Source: Escherichia phage NicoleGrasset_Bas72. From it: DNA of 43,746 nt. Positions 10,746 through 17,353 of the stretch are shown piece by piece. The DNA is taken from sequence record PQ850621.1; one strand, given 5' to 3'. The notes under the pieces were generated by a model that was not told the origin of the DNA, did not search any database, and worked only from the letters and a program-made list of their open reading frames with translations. Position numbers and translations under genes: made by a program. Numbering within the stretch: the stretch's first letter is position 1; each line of letters starts with the position of its first letter.

Positions 10746-11158
10746 TGGGCTACTTTGAGGACTTAACAAAAGCGTTCGATGTTCCGCTGGTAGCCTTCGG
10801 AACCGCCAACGGCATCAAGGTTGCGCTTGAAAACATCGACGCGCCGACGTCAACCGATACGCCGTATCTGGCGAGTTACATGCTACTGGCAGATACCGAG
10901 CAGGCGGATTTGTTCTTCACTGAGCAACGCTCTGGTATTTATCAGGTAGACATTAACTACGCATCGGTGAAAGGTAGCGCGCCAATCAATAAAATGGCAG
11001 ACTTACTTAACACGGCGTTTAAAGCAGGTAAGTCATTTTCGCGTAACGACATCTGCGCCGAGGTTCAATCGGTTAGCCTGGGGCCGCTGATTGTAGAAAA
11101 CGGATGGGCCAAACGACCATTGTCAATTAACTTTATTGCATTCACCAAGAGGCTGTGA
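10745..11158 (+). CDS. structural protein (tail region)
   Basis: 1-nt overlap with upstream stop; 137 aa. Confidence 0.5.
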   Translation: MGYFEDLTKAFDVPLVAFGTANGIKVALENIDAPTSTDTPYLASYMLLADTEQADLFFTEQRSGIYQVDINYASVKGSAPINKMADLLNTAFKAGKSFSRNDICAEVQSVSLGPLIVENGWAKRPLSINFIAFTKRL

Positions 11159-12327
11159 ATATGGCTACAACTCCTTTTAAGGGCGCGAATACCGCGCAAT
11201 TCTATGTGGCGGAAACTACCCCTGGCGTAACACCGACTAACCCGGTATGGTCGCCGTTGCGTAACACGGGCGGCGTTCCCGCTGTAACCCGCGATGCACT
11301 GACTTCCAACGAACTGGACGGCAGCCGTGAAACTACATCCATCCGAACCGGTAACAAGCAGGTTAGCGGGGAGTATGCCATCGAACTTAGCTCTCGTAGC
11401 CAGGATGATTTCCTTGCGGGAGCGATGACTTCTACGTGGCAAGCTGGGGTAGAGATTACTGGCGCCGAAATTACGGTCGCCCCAGCAGGTAAAACATTCA
11501 CCCGCGCTGCCGGTAGCTTCATTACTGACGGTGTAGAAGTTGGCGACCTTATTGCGTTCACCGACTTAACCGGCGACAACGCAAAACCGTTTATCGTGAC
11601 CGCGGTTTCCGCTCTGGTAGTTACGGGCGCAGGTATTCAGCACACGCTGACAGCAGAGACAGTAACCACTGACGCAAAAACTGGCGACAAGCTGGAAACC
11701 GGTAACGCGTGTAAGACGTTCTCCATCCTGACGTGGTTCAAGGGCCAGTGTGGTAACCCGGACGCGTACATGCTGACCAAAGGTGTGGAAATCTCTGGCT
11801 TTACCGTAGAGCAGGCGGTTAACGCCATGGTCACCGGCAGCTTCCCGTTCATCGGCCTGAGTCAGGAGATTCTTACCGCGCCGCCGTCTGGCTCTGATTT
11901 CTCTCAGGTTACGTTCACCGATGAGCCGTTCTCGTCGGTAGATGTGTCGGTGTTCGATGGCTCCACGCCGTTGCGTTGCGATACTCTCACCATCACCAAC
12001 GACAACGGAGCTTCCGCGCAGTTCGAACTCGGTAACAGTAGCGTGGCGTTCGTCGAACGTGGACGCGCAGCTAACACATTCTCTATCTCTGGCAAGCTGT
12101 ACGACATGGCGATGATTCAGAAGTTTATCAACGAGCAGCAGGTAGAGATTAACTCTATTCTGGCAGGGGTAAACGGGGCTATGTCTTTCAGTTTGAAACG
12201 CGCAGAGCTTACGGCGGTTACACCTGAGATTGGTGGGCCTGAGTCAATCACTCAGTCCATTGAAGGCCAGGCTACCGGCAATCAGTACCAGTCGTCTATC
12301 GTAATTCAACGTATCACCTACGCATAA
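11155..12327 (+). CDS. putative major tail protein
   Basis: 390 aa ORF upstream of chaperone/tape-measure genes; followed by strong terminator at 12329-12356. Confidence 0.45.
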   Translation: MNMATTPFKGANTAQFYVAETTPGVTPTNPVWSPLRNTGGVPAVTRDALTSNELDGSRETTSIRTGNKQVSGEYAIELSSRSQDDFLAGAMTSTWQAGVEITGAEITVAPAGKTFTRAAGSFITDGVEVGDLIAFTDLTGDNAKPFIVTAVSALVVTGAGIQHTLTAETVTTDAKTGDKLETGNACKTFSILTWFKGQCGNPDAYMLTKGVEISGFTVEQAVNAMVTGSFPFIGLSQEILTAPPSGSDFSQVTFTDEPFSSVDVSVFDGSTPLRCDTLTITNDNGASAQFELGNSSVAFVERGRAANTFSISGKLYDMAMIQKFINEQQVEINSILAGVNGAMSFSLKRAELTAVTPEIGGPESITQSIEGQATGNQYQSSIVIQRITYA

Positions 12328-12328
12328 A

Positions 12329-12356
12329 ACTAAGGCCCCTTTCGGGGCCTTTTTCT
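12329..12356. terminator. bidirectional rho-independent terminator
   Basis: AGGCCCC tttc GGGGCCT then TTTTT; convergent genes on both sides. Confidence 0.75.
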
Positions 12357-12586
12357 CACTCATCAATATTACTTCGATACTCCCGTAACTTCTCCAGACT
12401 TTCAATTGCTTCTGCTAAGTCGGTTCCGGTGTCCTTATGCCCGCGAAGACCCATGCACAATAACTTCTTCAATGCGTGCTGTAGTGCGGGGTCACGGATG
12501 TCGAAGGCACGGAGAACATCGTAAACGTCTACGGTCATAGTGCTGCCGTGAGTGTTTGTCATTGTTCGGTTGTATTTTGAAGTCAT
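12356..12586 (-). CDS. hypothetical protein (76 aa)
   Basis: Last gene of minus-strand cassette; start overlaps stop of 12583-13713. Confidence 0.45.
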   Translation of the reverse strand: MTSKYNRTMTNTHGSTMTVDVYDVLRAFDIRDPALQHALKKLLCMGLRGHKDTGTDLAEAIESLEKLREYRSNIDE

Positions 12587-13713
12587 CCCAGCATCTCCGG
12601 TGAAATAGTTAAACGTGCGACCTCGCCATATTCGGCGCTATAAGTAATTACATTTGCACTACGGCCTGACATCCACCCGCCGCGGGAGGCATAGGCGTCT
12701 TTAGCCGCTAAGGTGCGGTGTTGCTCAACAATCATGTTACGGCTTTCTACAATCTTCTGGTGGTGCAGGTGGCCTACGTGGGCGTAGCTATAGACACTCT
12801 CACCGAACGCTTTGCGGAATTTGGCAATCATAACCGGTTCGATAGCATCGAATCGCGCCTTATGCCCGTGGTGAAAGAACAACGTCGTTTTTCCGTGTTG
12901 CACCATCTTGTAAACATCCGGCGACGTATCGACAATCACTCGGCTGTCGTTCGAATATAAAACTGTGAACATTTCAGCCAGCCATACAGAGCCTACAGGG
13001 TCATGGTTCCCCTGTACGATAAGCAAGCGAACATTTTTATGTTTAACCAGTGCCATATCTACAACACGGCGTACCATACGAATCATGTAGCGGACGAGTT
13101 TCTGGTAGCGAGTGTCTGCGTCCAACACGTGACGCGACTCAGGTGTAACGGCATCCAGACTATCGAAGTGCGCGAAATCACCCAGCAGGTTAATAACTCC
13201 TGTTCCTGCATCCGGTGCTTTCTGAAACGCCGCGTCGAACCAACGAGAGAACAGGTCTTCCGCAATCTTTATATCCCAGTCGTCGCCGCTCTCGTCGGCC
13301 CAGGCAAGCATACCGAGATGGAAATCAGATACCGTGTAAAGATTGAGTAGCTTGTCGTCGCGTTTGGCTCGAGTCGCTTTAGCCGGCGCAACTGGCGTAA
13401 TCTCTGACTTCATGCCTTCAATCACGGCTTTCATCAACTCGACCTGACGTTCAGCGTCGGTGTCTGTCTTAACCCATTGCAACTTAGTATTGCCGAACTC
13501 GTCTACCAGAGACGACGTCCCTTTAATCTTGTAGCCGTCTGGGACAAGGTGGCTAACGTCACGCCCGTGGCCTACACCTTTCTTAGCCAGCTTCGCTTTA
13601 CGGATACGAATAACTCGGTCTGAGATGCCGTATTTACGGGCGATGTCTACATTCTTCATCCCGGCGTTCAATTCTTCCTGTAACTGTTCGTCGGTTATTT
13701 TCTTCTGGGCCAT
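12583..13713 (-). CDS. HTH domain fused to calcineurin-like metallophosphoesterase
   Basis: Metallophosphoesterase motifs visible in order: SDFHLG (D-x-H), GDFAHFD (GD), GNHD, HHGH, GHLHH; N-terminal HTH-like segment VDIARKYGISDRVIRIRKAKL. Confidence 0.7.
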   Translation of the reverse strand: MAQKKITDEQLQEELNAGMKNVDIARKYGISDRVIRIRKAKLAKKGVGHGRDVSHLVPDGYKIKGTSSLVDEFGNTKLQWVKTDTDAERQVELMKAVIEGMKSEITPVAPAKATRAKRDDKLLNLYTVSDFHLGMLAWADESGDDWDIKIAEDLFSRWFDAAFQKAPDAGTGVINLLGDFAHFDSLDAVTPESRHVLDADTRYQKLVRYMIRMVRRVVDMALVKHKNVRLLIVQGNHDPVGSVWLAEMFTVLYSNDSRVIVDTSPDVYKMVQHGKTTLFFHHGHKARFDAIEPVMIAKFRKAFGESVYSYAHVGHLHHQKIVESRNMIVEQHRTLAAKDAYASRGGWMSGRSANVITYSAEYGEVARLTISPEMLG

Positions 13714-13778
13714 GCTTACTTCCTCGTGTTTAGGATTTGTCCTATTTAACCACAGTGGATTCCTTTAAATAAAGGCAA

Positions 13779-14105
13779 CTATTTACTTTCTGCGCCTATC
13801 GCCCACCCTGTCATTACCATTTGCAGACGGGTGGCTGTCAGTAGGCTATAGAAAGCATCTCCGTTTTTCTCTACCGAACGTATCACTGTGTAGGTTACGG
13901 CCTGCGGGGGTAGGCCCGATTTACCAACCTCCACGGCGGCCTCACACTCGCGAACTGTAGAGTCCTTGAACGCCTTTACAATAGTAGGGTCGGCTTTATC
14001 AAGCACACCAGAAGTCATAAGAACAGATTCACTAAATACCTGTTCGCACGGGGCTCCAAAAGTAGCAAAAGACATAAACCCCAGAGCTAATACTAATTTA
14101 CGCAT
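13779..14105 (-). CDS. small secreted protein (signal peptide)
   Basis: N-terminus MRKLVLALGFMSFATFGA is a signal-peptide-like n/h/c region; first gene downstream of promoter 14134-14162. Confidence 0.55.
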   Translation of the reverse strand: MRKLVLALGFMSFATFGAPCEQVFSESVLMTSGVLDKADPTIVKAFKDSTVRECEAAVEVGKSGLPPQAVTYTVIRSVEKNGDAFYSLLTATRLQMVMTGWAIGAESK

Positions 14106-14133
14106 AATTATACCCTCAGTAAGTTACTGGTGA

Positions 14134-14162
14134 ATAGTACCCTATTATATTGGGGCGCGCAA
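14134..14162 (-). promoter_or_regulatory. promoter, TTGCGC-N17-TACTAT family
   Basis: On minus strand: TTGCGC, spacer gccccaatataataggg, TACTAT; drives cassette 13779-14105 onward. Confidence 0.55.
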
Positions 14163-14269
14163 GTAGTGTGTTAGAATAAGTTTGCGCCTAGTGTCGCACA
14201 CGAAAAGCGGGTGGTTCCCGCCTGGCGCATTAACCATAACCAGTAACCTCTTAACCAAAGGACTAAAGA

Positions 14270-14686
14270 ATGAAACTTTCTGATTTCTATTTTGCCGACC
14301 GCCACGCCGCCGGTACTAAAATGCCTATCCTTCTGCCCAGTGGTAAAGATTCCGGTGAATGGTTGCAGGTCATCGGCCCCGATTGTGACGCTGGTGTTCG
14401 TGCGGGCCGTGCCTACACAACGGCAATTCGACGCCTTACGGAAGAACTTGCGCCATTAGATAAAGAGTGCGAGGCGCTGAATAACTGGGCGCGCTATAAT
14501 GATGAGAAGGGCTGGCGGGTGATGGACCTGAACAAGCAGCTTGCCGTGGAAATCGTCACCGGTTGGTCATTCGACGAACCATTCAGCAAAGAGGCGCTTG
14601 CTAACCTGTTCGACCAGTACAGTGGGTTGGCAGAGGCCGTAGTTAAGCATCACACCGATAGCCGTGAGAAACTCTCGGAAAAGTAA
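14270..14686 (+). CDS. tail assembly chaperone (G-like)
   Basis: 138 aa ORF immediately upstream of tape measure gene; downstream -1 frame ORF overlaps by 16 nt. Confidence 0.55.
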   Translation: MKLSDFYFADRHAAGTKMPILLPSGKDSGEWLQVIGPDCDAGVRAGRAYTTAIRRLTEELAPLDKECEALNNWARYNDEKGWRVMDLNKQLAVEIVTGWSFDEPFSKEALANLFDQYSGLAEAVVKHHTDSREKLSEK

Positions 14687-15048
14687 AAGCGCTGTATGAA
14701 TTTGCGCAATGGTGCTTTGTCGACCGCCACAAACGTAAGCAATTCGACGACATCGCGGCGGGCCACCAGGCGGCTTTGATTGCAATGGGCGTGATTAAAG
14801 AACCGCAGATGAAAGAAGCGACGGGGCCGGAATGCCCCGTTTCTCTTATCGACGTGTTCGAGAAATACCGTGCCATTAAATTCCTACAGCGCGAAACAGA
14901 TGATACTATCGTTATAATCCCGCGCGATGCGCTCAAATGGCAAGATTTGGTAGCGTTTCGTGATGTCGCCGGTTACGGCATAAGTTTGTTCGAAGCCGAG
15001 GTTATCATGGGCTTAGACGGAATATTTGAGGGCAGAGAAGATGGCTGA
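14668..15048 (+). CDS. -1 frame extension of tail chaperone (GT-like frameshift product), putative
   Basis: Frame -1 relative to 14270-14686 opens at 14668 with no in-frame ATG before 14785; ends overlapping the tape measure ATG; GAAAAG run at 14678-14683 lies in the overlap. Confidence 0.4.
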   Translation, partial: ETLGKVKALYEFAQWCFVDRHKRKQFDDIAAGHQAALIAMGVIKEPQMKEATGPECPVSLIDVFEKYRAIKFLQRETDDTIVIIPRDALKWQDLVAFRDVAGYGISLFEAEVIMGLDGIFEGREDG

Positions 15049-17353
15049 TACGGCTTCCCTAATTGCCAGAGTAAAAACAGAAGGCGCTGATGTAGCCGCT
15101 AAACAGCTTGACGCTATGGCGGCATCCGCAGACCGTGCGGACACATCCGTAAACAAACTAACGCCGGATGTTAATAAAGTAAACTCCGCTACGTCTAAAG
15201 CGGCTTCTGACGGTTTCGCTAAATTCCGTAACGCCGCCGGGCAGGTAGGCTTCCAGGTGCAGGACATGGTCGTCCAGTTGCAGTCCGGCACGTCTGCATT
15301 CGTAGCAATCGGGCAACAAGGCTCTCAGCTTGCGGGTGCTTTCGGCCCTGGTGGCGCGGTGCTTGGGGCCGTAATTGCTCTTGCGTCAGCAATCGGTGGT
15401 GTCCTGTATAAATCGTTAACCGAAGCAGAAGGCAGTTCAAAAGACCTCGAAGCCGCACAGAAACAGCTAAAAGATACTTTCCAGCAAACGGCGTCCGGCT
15501 CTCTCGAACTGACAGACGGCCTTATCCAGCTTACCCAAATCAGCAGAGAAGCGGCGGAGACTCAGCTTGCGCTGGCTAAGGCTAACGCGGACCTTATCGC
15601 ACAGCAAACAGCTAAAGCTGTTCGTGAGGACGCAGAATCATGGGAGACATGGAAGGCATCCACAGCATCAGCTATCAGCCAGTACGATGCATTGGCCTCT
15701 AAAGGTGCGGATGTAGGCGACACGTTAGAAAAACTCGGTGGCACTTACGAGGGTAACATCGTAGGCGTCAACATGCTGGCGCAGAATATCGCAGAGCTTA
15801 GCAGTAAGTTTGGGGTTAACCGTGACCAGGCGCTGGAGATGATAGCGGCGCAGAGTGCGTTTAACAAAGAGCCAACCGCCGAGAATGCCCGTCGCATCGC
15901 CGATGTGTTTACCGACTGGCTCGGTAATACAAAACAGTTGAACCCGGAACTTATCCGCCTGACCGACAATGCCAACAAGAACGCCACGGCACTGGAGAAC
16001 GCGGAGAAGTCCGCAAACGCGGCGGCGGAGGCCCAAAAGAATCTTGGTCGTAACGTCAACTCAACAACGCAGAGATTCCAGGAACAGAACGAAGCTATCG
16101 TCAAAAACCAGCAAATCGCTATCTTAAGTGACCGCGAGCGTATCCGTGCGCAAGCTGAACTGGATAAGCAGGCGTTCGCTAAACGTGAAGCTGTCACCAA
16201 AGAACAGATCGCCGCGTATAATGCTGCGCGTGACACGGAAGCACAACAAGACATCGCTCGCATCGACGCTACCGAAAAAGCGAAGGCCGACCGCGAGGCC
16301 AAATCGAACGAGAAACGGCTGGCGGCACAAGCCAAACGCGAAGAAACGGCGGCTGAACGACAGAAAAAAGCGGCGGAAGATTTCCTGGCTACTGTCGACC
16401 GCACAACCGGAGATGAGATTTCGCGCATTACCGCTGCGGAAGAACAGAAACTGGCGAAACTGGAGGAGTTCAACCGCGCCGGAACGATAAGCCAGCAGCA
16501 GTATGAAAACGCCAAAACTCAAATTATGCTCACAGCCGAGCAGGCCAGACAGGAAGAACTGGATAAGAAAAGAAAAGAGCAGCAGGAAAAGCAGCAGAAA
16601 GGCGAGGACTTCATGGCACAGATTATGGGTCAGAACGCTACTGAGCTTGAGCTTCTCGACATCCAGGAACAGCAGAAACTGGAGGTAGCGGATAAGTACC
16701 GTGAGCAGGGGCTTATTAGTGAGAAGCAGTACCAGGCGGCGCTTAACGCCATCAATGAGCAGTATGCTACGAAGCGTGCCGACGCAACGGCAACCGCCTT
16801 CGGTAACATGGCTTCAAACATCGGTTCGGCTTTGGGCGAGGCTTCTGGCGCGTATAAGGCATTCGCTATCGTACAGGCCACTATCGCCACGTACACCGCG
16901 GCTATCGAGGCGTACAAGTCCACAGCGGCTATCCCTGTAGTTGGTCCGTTCCTGGCTCCTGTAGCTGCCGCCGCTGCCGTTGGGGCGGGTATGGCGCAGA
17001 TTTCCGCTATCAGGTCCGCACGTGAACAGGGCGGACAGTTATCAGCCGGGCAGGCTTCCACCATCGCTGAACGTGGTAAACCAGAAGTTATCATGCCCGC
17101 TGGTGCGTCACGTGTACGCACCGCACAGCAGATGAAAGAAATTATGGGGCAAAACGGGTCTTCTTCCGGCCCATCTAATGTTACCATTGTAAATAATACA
17201 TCGAGTCAGATTGGCAACGTATCCACCGAGCAGGATGATGAAGGCCGTCTGCGTATCATCATAGAAGAGCAAGTTGCTGCATCTTTGCAGAACAGCAACA
17301 GTAAGATTAGCAAGGCCCGCAAGGCCACAAGAAACGCGCCGGGGTTTAAATAA
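15041..17353 (+). CDS. tail tape measure protein
   Basis: About 770 aa, highly A/E/K/Q-rich helical protein with low-complexity repeats; position after chaperone pair. Confidence 0.75.
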   Translation: MADTASLIARVKTEGADVAAKQLDAMAASADRADTSVNKLTPDVNKVNSATSKAASDGFAKFRNAAGQVGFQVQDMVVQLQSGTSAFVAIGQQGSQLAGAFGPGGAVLGAVIALASAIGGVLYKSLTEAEGSSKDLEAAQKQLKDTFQQTASGSLELTDGLIQLTQISREAAETQLALAKANADLIAQQTAKAVREDAESWETWKASTASAISQYDALASKGADVGDTLEKLGGTYEGNIVGVNMLAQNIAELSSKFGVNRDQALEMIAAQSAFNKEPTAENARRIADVFTDWLGNTKQLNPELIRLTDNANKNATALENAEKSANAAAEAQKNLGRNVNSTTQRFQEQNEAIVKNQQIAILSDRERIRAQAELDKQAFAKREAVTKEQIAAYNAARDTEAQQDIARIDATEKAKADREAKSNEKRLAAQAKREETAAERQKKAAEDFLATVDRTTGDEISRITAAEEQKLAKLEEFNRAGTISQQQYENAKTQIMLTAEQARQEELDKKRKEQQEKQQKGEDFMAQIMGQNATELELLDIQEQQKLEVADKYREQGLISEKQYQAALNAINEQYATKRADATATAFGNMASNIGSALGEASGAYKAFAIVQATIATYTAAIEAYKSTAAIPVVGPFLAPVAAAAAVGAGMAQISAIRSAREQGGQLSAGQASTIAERGKPEVIMPAGASRVRTAQQMKEIMGQNGSSSGPSNVTIVNNTSSQIGNVSTEQDDEGRLRIIIEEQVAASLQNSNSKISKARKATRNAPGFK

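Follow-up and report, generated by a model that had tools for sequence, protein, structure and literature searches.

The tail assembly chaperone gene of Escherichia phage NicoleGrasset_Bas72 very probably carries a programmed −1 ribosomal frameshift at its last two codons, by which some ribosomes would bypass the stop codon of a 138-residue protein, analogous to gpG of phage lambda, and continue into an overlapping frame, T, to yield a G–T fusion of 259 residues. A tail assembly chaperone frameshift at this locus is already known and ordinary, having been annotated in a sister phage; a comparison of 74 relatives places the slip site at G_GAA_AAG, on the final two sense codons of G. The window analysed here is a stretch of 43,746 nucleotides from sequence record PQ850621.1, and all positions refer to that stretch.

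The phage is a Kagunavirus (Guernseyvirinae) siphophage with the gene order of a siphovirus of about 44 kb. Over positions 13700–15400 it is 99.9% identical to Escherichia phage GertrudWoker_Bas73 (PQ850603) and 94–99% identical to other Kagunavirus phages (e.g. K1H, fFiEco02, XY2). Genes for the tail terminator and the tail tube lie upstream of G, and the chaperone pair lies downstream of the tube gene and immediately 5′ of the tape measure gene. The features concerned are as follows.

11155 to 12327, plus strand: tail tube (major tail) gene (Pfam PF18906 Phage_tube_2, 131.6 bits)
12356 to 14105, minus strand: insert of a small ORF, a 376-aa metallophosphoesterase (phrog_704) and a 108-aa ORF (phrog_14165)
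14258 to 14262, plus strand: Shine–Dalgarno (SD) sequence AAGGA of gene G, read from the sequence
14270 to 14686, plus strand: gene G analogue, tail assembly chaperone, 138 aa, 0 frame, from ATG 14270 to TAA 14684–14686
14665 to 14667, plus strand: TGA in the −1 frame, the 5′ limit for any shift that could yield a fusion
14677 to 14683, plus strand: putative slip site G_GAA_AAG, from the comparison of 74 relatives, with core A_AAG at 14680–14683
14683 to 15048, plus strand: predicted T segment, read in the −1 frame after the shift, 121 aa, from GTA 14683–14685 to TGA 15046–15048
14684 to 14686, plus strand: 0-frame stop TAA, directly 3′ of the slip site, with A as the next base
14689 to 14694, plus strand: GCGCTG, Ala-Leu in the −1 frame, 5–10 nt after the first base of the G stop
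15041 to 17353, plus strand: tape measure protein gene (phrog_1538 tail length tape measure protein, E 1e-198)

In its own frame G ends with the codons GAG AAA CTC TCG GAA AAG TAA. The −1 frame is open from 14668 to the TGA at 15046–15048 (381 nt, 126 sense codons), where the ATG of the tape measure gene at 15041 overlaps the T stop (ATGGCTGA). Before the G stop the two frames share 16 nt (14668–14683), within which GAAAAG occupies 14678–14683. The predicted fusion is join(14270..14683, 14683..15048), 259 aa, with the junction ...REKLSEK-VKALYEF.... The initial annotation, made from the letters alone, had described a −1 frame open from 14668 for 381 nt as far as the tape measure overlap, and a 16-nt overlap that held GAAAAG without a textbook heptamer; these coordinates were reproduced, and G_GAA_AAG is indeed not of the form X_XXZ_ZZN. 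It had also stated that no in-frame ATG precedes 14785, which proved correct, with a TTG at 14776 coming before it.

The usual order of tube, G, T and tape measure genes is broken here by the three minus-strand genes at 12356–14105, of which the metallophosphoesterase (phrog_704) carries the annotation ‘DNA repair exonuclease’; in another clade, the ORF adjoining G is annotated as a superinfection immunity protein. A match to the int-alpA RNA motif (Rfam RF02996) lies on the plus strand at 14181–14245, in the divergent intergenic region and about 25 nt upstream of the G ATG, scoring 35.8 bits, equal to the gathering score (E 3.4e-6). Matches occupy the equivalent place in relatives (36.6 bits in L074; 30.9–31.6 bits in K1H, which is L027, and in L092 and L071), and this element may be part of a 5′ leader or a small RNA.

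Both members of the pair belong to tail assembly chaperone families. G matches Pfam PF08748 (Phage_TAC_4) with 35.9 bits, above a gathering cut-off of 21.1, and T matches PF23812 (Phage_TAC_18) with 64.6 bits, above a cut-off of 27. The ‘tail assembly chaperone’ family phrog_15027 is a single profile of 259 positions, to which G aligns at positions 1–138 (E 1e-65) and T at 138–259, so the profile spans both halves. A search with a profile of the fusion for sequence relatives of solved structure returned no significant match (best E 0.033). The earlier description of the two ORFs as a tail chaperone pair is thus borne out by family scores above the gathering threshold and by the position of the pair directly 5′ of the tape measure gene.

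An exact-sequence look-up found the predicted 259-aa fusion to be identical to a protein on record as ‘tail assembly chaperone [Escherichia phage K1H]’ (ADA82316.1, YP_009168853.1, UniRef100_D2XJD7). K1H (gp21/gp22; YP_009168853.1, YP_009168854.1), fFiEco02 and fPoEco01 are members of the same genus, Kagunavirus, with the same gene pair, and K1H has the same junction (...SEK-VKAL...), with no difference of substance. A joined two-piece CDS covers the pair in all three, measuring 779 nt in K1H (gp21) and fFiEco02 (FE2_026) and 782 nt in fPoEco01, and the records of fFiEco02 and fPoEco01 annotate a ‘frameshift product’. An alternative junction, ...LSGKVK..., as would follow from a shift one codon earlier, was set aside: it is not the protein on record for K1H or fPoEco01, a fact that reflects only the choice of the annotators. 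Bas73, Jersey, SETP7 and horsemountain give T as a separate CDS from a CTG or TTG that matches 14692, 8 nt after the first base of the G stop; in Bas73 (L001) this CDS spans 2493–2849, equivalent to 14692–15048 here, and L017, L019 and L024 are treated likewise. In yet other records T begins at a later position or is labelled hypothetical.

A tblastn search with the fusion returned 512 phage records, 488 of which had one place covering at least 80% of the query, and the hosts of these phages include Salmonella, Escherichia, Serratia, Enterobacter and Klebsiella. Among the full-coverage matches listed, all except Salmonella phage SS3e were split into two or three pieces, and the change of frame is therefore kept down to about 50% protein identity. 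For the comparison of junctions we used 74 unique sequences from public phage records and IMG/VR contigs, forming 19 clusters at 80% nucleotide identity and having a median identity of 60% to this phage; a scan of viral contigs with T alone recovered near-identical loci only, and an alignment-based scan reached the diverged relatives. G is 138 aa long in all 74.

Three records stand apart. In SS3e (L023, AY730274) a broken G ORF of 101 codons lacks a proper start, and a single frame accommodates the entire fusion; in Klebsiella phage vB_kpnM_D1 (L020, PP107912) the T frame is shortened to 83 codons. Both anomalies are probably sequencing errors in the records. In the distant relative Serratia phage Tlacuache (L025, OK499995), G ends at about 1600–1632 with ...GGC CGA AAG GGT CGG AAA TAA, and a long open −1 frame runs to the tape measure gene; its C_CGA_AAG is in the same class of hexanucleotide as the IS1222 and B. 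subtilis cdd sites.

The evidence for the slip site comes from the comparison of these junctions. The last codon of G is AAG in 74/74 relatives, while lysine codons elsewhere in the compared segments are divided between AAA (292) and AAG (236). The codon before it is always NNA (GAA 53, GCA 14, GTA 4, AAA 2, GGA 1), even as the amino acid encoded varies among glutamate, alanine, valine, lysine and glycine. Wherever that codon is GAA, the preceding base is G (53/53), supplied by six codons (TCG, TTG, CTG, CAG, GCG and ATG) that stand for five amino acids (Ser, Leu, Gln, Ala and Met). TAA or TAG follows AAG directly in every relative, with A or C as the fourth base. The resulting heptamers are G_GAA_AAG (53), C_GCA_AAG (8), A_GCA_AAG (5), G_GTA_AAG (4), A_AAA_AAG (2), G_GGA_AAG (1) and G_GCA_AAG (1), so that the canonical dnaX and lambda heptamers, A_AAA_AAG and G_GGA_AAG, take the equivalent position in some relatives. 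In two of them (L061 and L063) the −1 frame overlaps G by only 7 nt, which is the heptamer itself (C_GCA_AAG), and any shift must therefore fall within the last two codons of G.

These columns, with the GCGYTG that follows the stop, form a cassette that can be written N_NNA_AAG-TAR-NN-GCG-YTG. Outside it, one of 74 third-codon positions is invariant across the 74 relatives; inside it all five are, three of them synonymous in G or T and two fixed by the stop. The motif by itself is within chance expectation (GGAAAAGTAA occurs twice and AAAGTAR 23 times in the whole stretch), so its significance comes from the comparison with relatives. On that comparison, both the slip site and the stop beside it are under selection at the nucleotide level. 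The initial annotation had left the exact slip site uncertain; the invariant AAG, the NNA before it, the G before GAA, the adjacent stop and the 7-nt overlaps fix it as G_GAA_AAG at 14677–14683.

Measured against the canonical X_XXZ_ZZN pattern, the site agrees in its second half (ZZZ = AAA) and departs from it in its first, since GGA is not a run of three like bases and tRNA-Glu could re-pair on GGA only with a G.U pair in the middle position. It does conform to the A_AAG or NNA_AAG type, having an A before AAG, so that tRNA-Lys can re-pair on AAA.

We propose that most ribosomes would translate 14270–14683 and terminate at TAA 14684 to release the 138-aa G-like chaperone, and that a minority would slip back by one base on G_GAA_AAG, with tRNA-Lys moving from AAG to AAA and tRNA-Glu from GAA to GGA through the middle G.U pair. 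The slipped ribosomes would then read GTA at 14683 and proceed to TGA 15046, making the 259-aa fusion (...LSEK-VKALYEF...). By analogy with lambda gpG and gpGT, the G portion, present in both proteins, would coat the tape measure protein and the T portion, carried by the rare fusion, would recruit the tail tube protein; neither chaperone would end up in the virion. We infer both the occurrence of the shift and the roles of the two domains. The efficiency would probably be a few per cent, and the events may be split between this tandem slippage and a slip of the P-site tRNA over the stop.

That second route would give the identical fusion by way of a ‘shifty stop’: with AAG in the P site and TAA in the A site, peptidyl-tRNA-Lys would slip alone to AAA, and GTA would be decoded. 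We consider it a possible, if on balance unlikely, source of the fusion, and it may coexist with tandem slippage. The stop directly 3′ of AAG in all 74 relatives speaks for it, as does the third base of the −1 frame valine codon, which is always A and so keeps the stop in place. The base after the stop, always A or C, points the same way; in E. coli, termination is weaker when the fourth base is A or C. The GCA and GTA clades, moreover, keep A_AAG and the stop where re-pairing in the P site is not possible. For the GCA clades (C_GCA_AAG and A_GCA_AAG) this means that tandem slippage is not the whole story across the family, and the GCA and GTA clades, the invariant stop and the fourth base A or C together fit a contribution from a slip of P-site tRNA-Lys at the stop. 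Reviews describe both an alternative frameshift route taken when the A site fills slowly (PMC6771820) and frameshifting that depends on a stop codon (PMC5009743).

On the other side, the G at −7, found in 53/53 G_GAA_AAG sites at a position synonymous for five amino acids, fits tandem slippage with AAG in the A site and tRNA-Glu re-pairing on GGA; the canonical heptamers at the equivalent position in relatives also point to tandem slippage, and the invariant stop could merely reflect a fixed C-terminus of G. Since the two routes give the same protein, mass spectrometry cannot separate them.

Among tetramers, A_AAG is the most prone to shift in E. coli, with up to 5.6% frameshifting when a pseudoknot is present and values near background otherwise, and tetramer motifs that lack a stimulator are barely above background in E. 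coli reporters (PMC4066793). NNA_AAG is used by IS1222 and present in B. subtilis cdd, with an efficiency that depends on the codon 5′ of AAG (PMC5009743). Against this background we looked for stimulators on both sides of the site. Downstream, an RNAalifold consensus over several windows gave a stem of 3 bp at most (−0.38 kcal/mol, pseudoknots excluded), no averaged pair probability 3′ of the slip site exceeded 0.3 in the family, and family fold z-scores were about 0, like those of control windows; the phage's own hairpin at 14686–14718 had a fold z-score of −0.66. A conserved downstream stimulatory structure was accordingly rejected for pseudoknot-free folds, the type that these methods cover. 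Upstream, an SD-like 4-mer lies 4–18 nt before the site in 4/74 sequences and is absent in this phage, and an upstream SD-like stimulator was rejected on that count. A search for Rfam frameshift elements found none, the sole match being the int-alpA motif upstream of G. The non-canonical heptamer and the failure to find a stimulator count against the frameshift reading. In the lambda G/GT shift, strong structure is reportedly not needed either.

A G+C-rich hairpin on the plus strand at 14820–14841, with 8 pairs (6 of them G-C) and followed by TTTCTCTT, lies inside the coding sequence of T and looks like a terminator whichever strand is read. At 137 nt from the slip site, it is too far away to stimulate frameshifting.

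The GCGYTG part of the cassette is conserved at synonymous positions, the alanine codon being GCG in 74/74 and the leucine codon YTG in 74/74 (CTG 60, TTG 14); another near-invariant alanine column, by comparison, uses GCC 43, GCG 19, GCT 8 and GCA 1, and another leucine column uses six codons. No pairing partner for GCGYTG was detected in the consensus fold, the pair probabilities or the family z-scores. The element could be a linear spacer signal, and the YTG at 14692–14694 could in principle serve as a weak start or reinitiation codon. A more ambitious suggestion, which we hold to be rather improbable, is that the entire cassette is a structure-free signal, its stop and GCGYTG acting directly on the ribosome or on the kinetics of release factors to set the ratio of G to GT, or else its YTG acting also as a weak reinitiation codon from which T alone would be made as a third product.

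A simpler account would dispense with frameshifting, T being made as a separate protein by initiation, or by termination and reinitiation, at CTG 14692, TTG 14776 or ATG 14785. We judge this very unlikely, even with a YTG that is invariant in 74/74 (TTG in 14), an AGGA 12 nt upstream of it in 28/74 and the several public records that annotate a separate CDS there. AGGA is absent in this phage, and its CTG, lacking an SD sequence as in 46/74 relatives, would be a very poor initiator. TTG 14776 and ATG 14785 are preceded by 31 and 34 residues whose amino acid sequence is conserved: V1, A3, L4, F21, D22, I24 and H28 of T are invariant and G27 nearly so, and the codons of residues 1–34, the stretch before Met35, vary at the third position (TTT/TTC, GAC/GAT, ATA/ATC/ATT, CAT/CAC). 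Codon 35 itself is isoleucine (ATC or ATA) in 9/74, and an SD-like sequence precedes it in 1/65 of those with ATG.

Across the 74 relatives the first canonical T start falls at codon 4, 5, 11, 13, 32, 33, 35, 48 or 51, or is absent within 50 codons, and in FSL SP-031 it is codon 58; no start codon or SD sequence for the downstream ORF is conserved among them. The candidate starts at CTG 14692, TTG 14776 and ATG 14785, each either unconserved or without an SD sequence, were rejected. Separate expression would also leave unexplained why A_AAG and the G at −7 are fixed at synonymous positions in G, and why canonical frameshift heptamers replace the motif in relatives. In lambda, moreover, the T domain reportedly works only when tethered to G (Xu et al. 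2013 and 2014, through the review PMC5009743). As far as aligned sequences can tell, T has no independent start. An independent start codon with an SD sequence for T had been named at the outset as a finding that would refute the frameshift, and it was sought in the 74 relatives and not found conserved; the −1 frameshift reading of the initial annotation is supported, both ORFs belonging to chaperone families, the slip site being conserved and T lacking a conserved start or SD sequence.

Slippage of RNA polymerase on the A run, fusing the frames through an mRNA with one A more or fewer, is extremely improbable: the four A at 14679–14682, and six A in two relatives, would favour it, but a longer homopolymer is required for productive transcriptional slippage, the arrangement persists in the GCA and GTA clades, where the run is no more than three A (GCAAAG, GTAAAG), and what is invariant follows the codon phase (NNA_AAG, then the stop), as expected of a ribosomal event.

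The proposed −1 frameshift at G_GAA_AAG can be placed among known systems. Classified after the G/GT programmed −1 frameshift of Xu, Hendrix and Duda 2004, the locus has overlapping ORFs in −1 relation 5′ of the tape measure gene, a position between the tube and tape measure genes, a conserved slippery sequence and a T ORF without initiation signals. As in lambda gpG/gpGT, the ORFs overlap directly upstream of the tape measure gene, the second lies in the −1 frame without a start of its own, and A_AAG closes a slip site that lies close to the end of G. The slip site in lambda is G_GGA_AAG (Levin et al. 1993; Xu, Hendrix and Duda 2004, 2013, 2014, through PMC5009743), and one relative (L104) has this exact heptamer at the equivalent position. 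The site in this phage, G_GAA_AAG, is one base off, and the P-site tRNA would therefore re-pair with a middle G.U. It also differs from lambda in that a stop directly follows the slip site, its chaperones are assigned to different Pfam families (TAC_4 and TAC_18) and its tail tube gene is set apart from G by three minus-strand genes.

The −1 sites of the NNA_AAG or A_AAG type, namely IS3, IS1222 (G_CGA_AAG) and B. subtilis cdd (A_CGA_AAG), share with this family an invariant core A_AAG and a variable NNA before it, represented here also by the GCA_AAG and GTA_AAG variants (PMC5009743, PMC4066793). A stimulatory pseudoknot or stem-loop 5–9 nt past the site is a mark of this class, and IS3-type sites depend on a downstream pseudoknot, whereas no conserved structure was detected here by methods that cover pseudoknot-free folds. 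Escherichia coli dnaX (A_AAA_AAG) resembles the site in that tRNA-Lys slips from AAG to AAA, and its heptamer recurs in two relatives. Unlike dnaX, which has an upstream SD sequence and a downstream stem-loop, the family has an SD-like element in 4/74 sequences and no stem-loop that we could find; the dnaX shift leads to early termination, and the shift proposed here to a C-terminal extension. In the literature library searched, no relevant paper on a chaperone frameshift in Kagunavirus, Jerseyvirus or K1H was found.

The mechanism is that of the textbooks, and the value of the finding lies mainly in annotation. Bas73 and most of the roughly 500 Guernseyvirinae records give T as separate or hypothetical, often from a CTG, and the records with a separate T probably need a joined CDS of the form join(G start..AAG, G of AAG..T stop). 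The family also offers a natural series of heptamers, G_GAA_AAG, G_GGA_AAG, A_AAA_AAG, G_GTA_AAG and N_GCA_AAG, each beside a stop and with no structure detected, which could serve to weigh the contributions of re-pairing in the P site and of a neighbouring stop to frameshifting at low levels. For the phages themselves the frameshift would be functionally central, because a siphovirus depends on the ratio of G to GT to give its tail the correct length.
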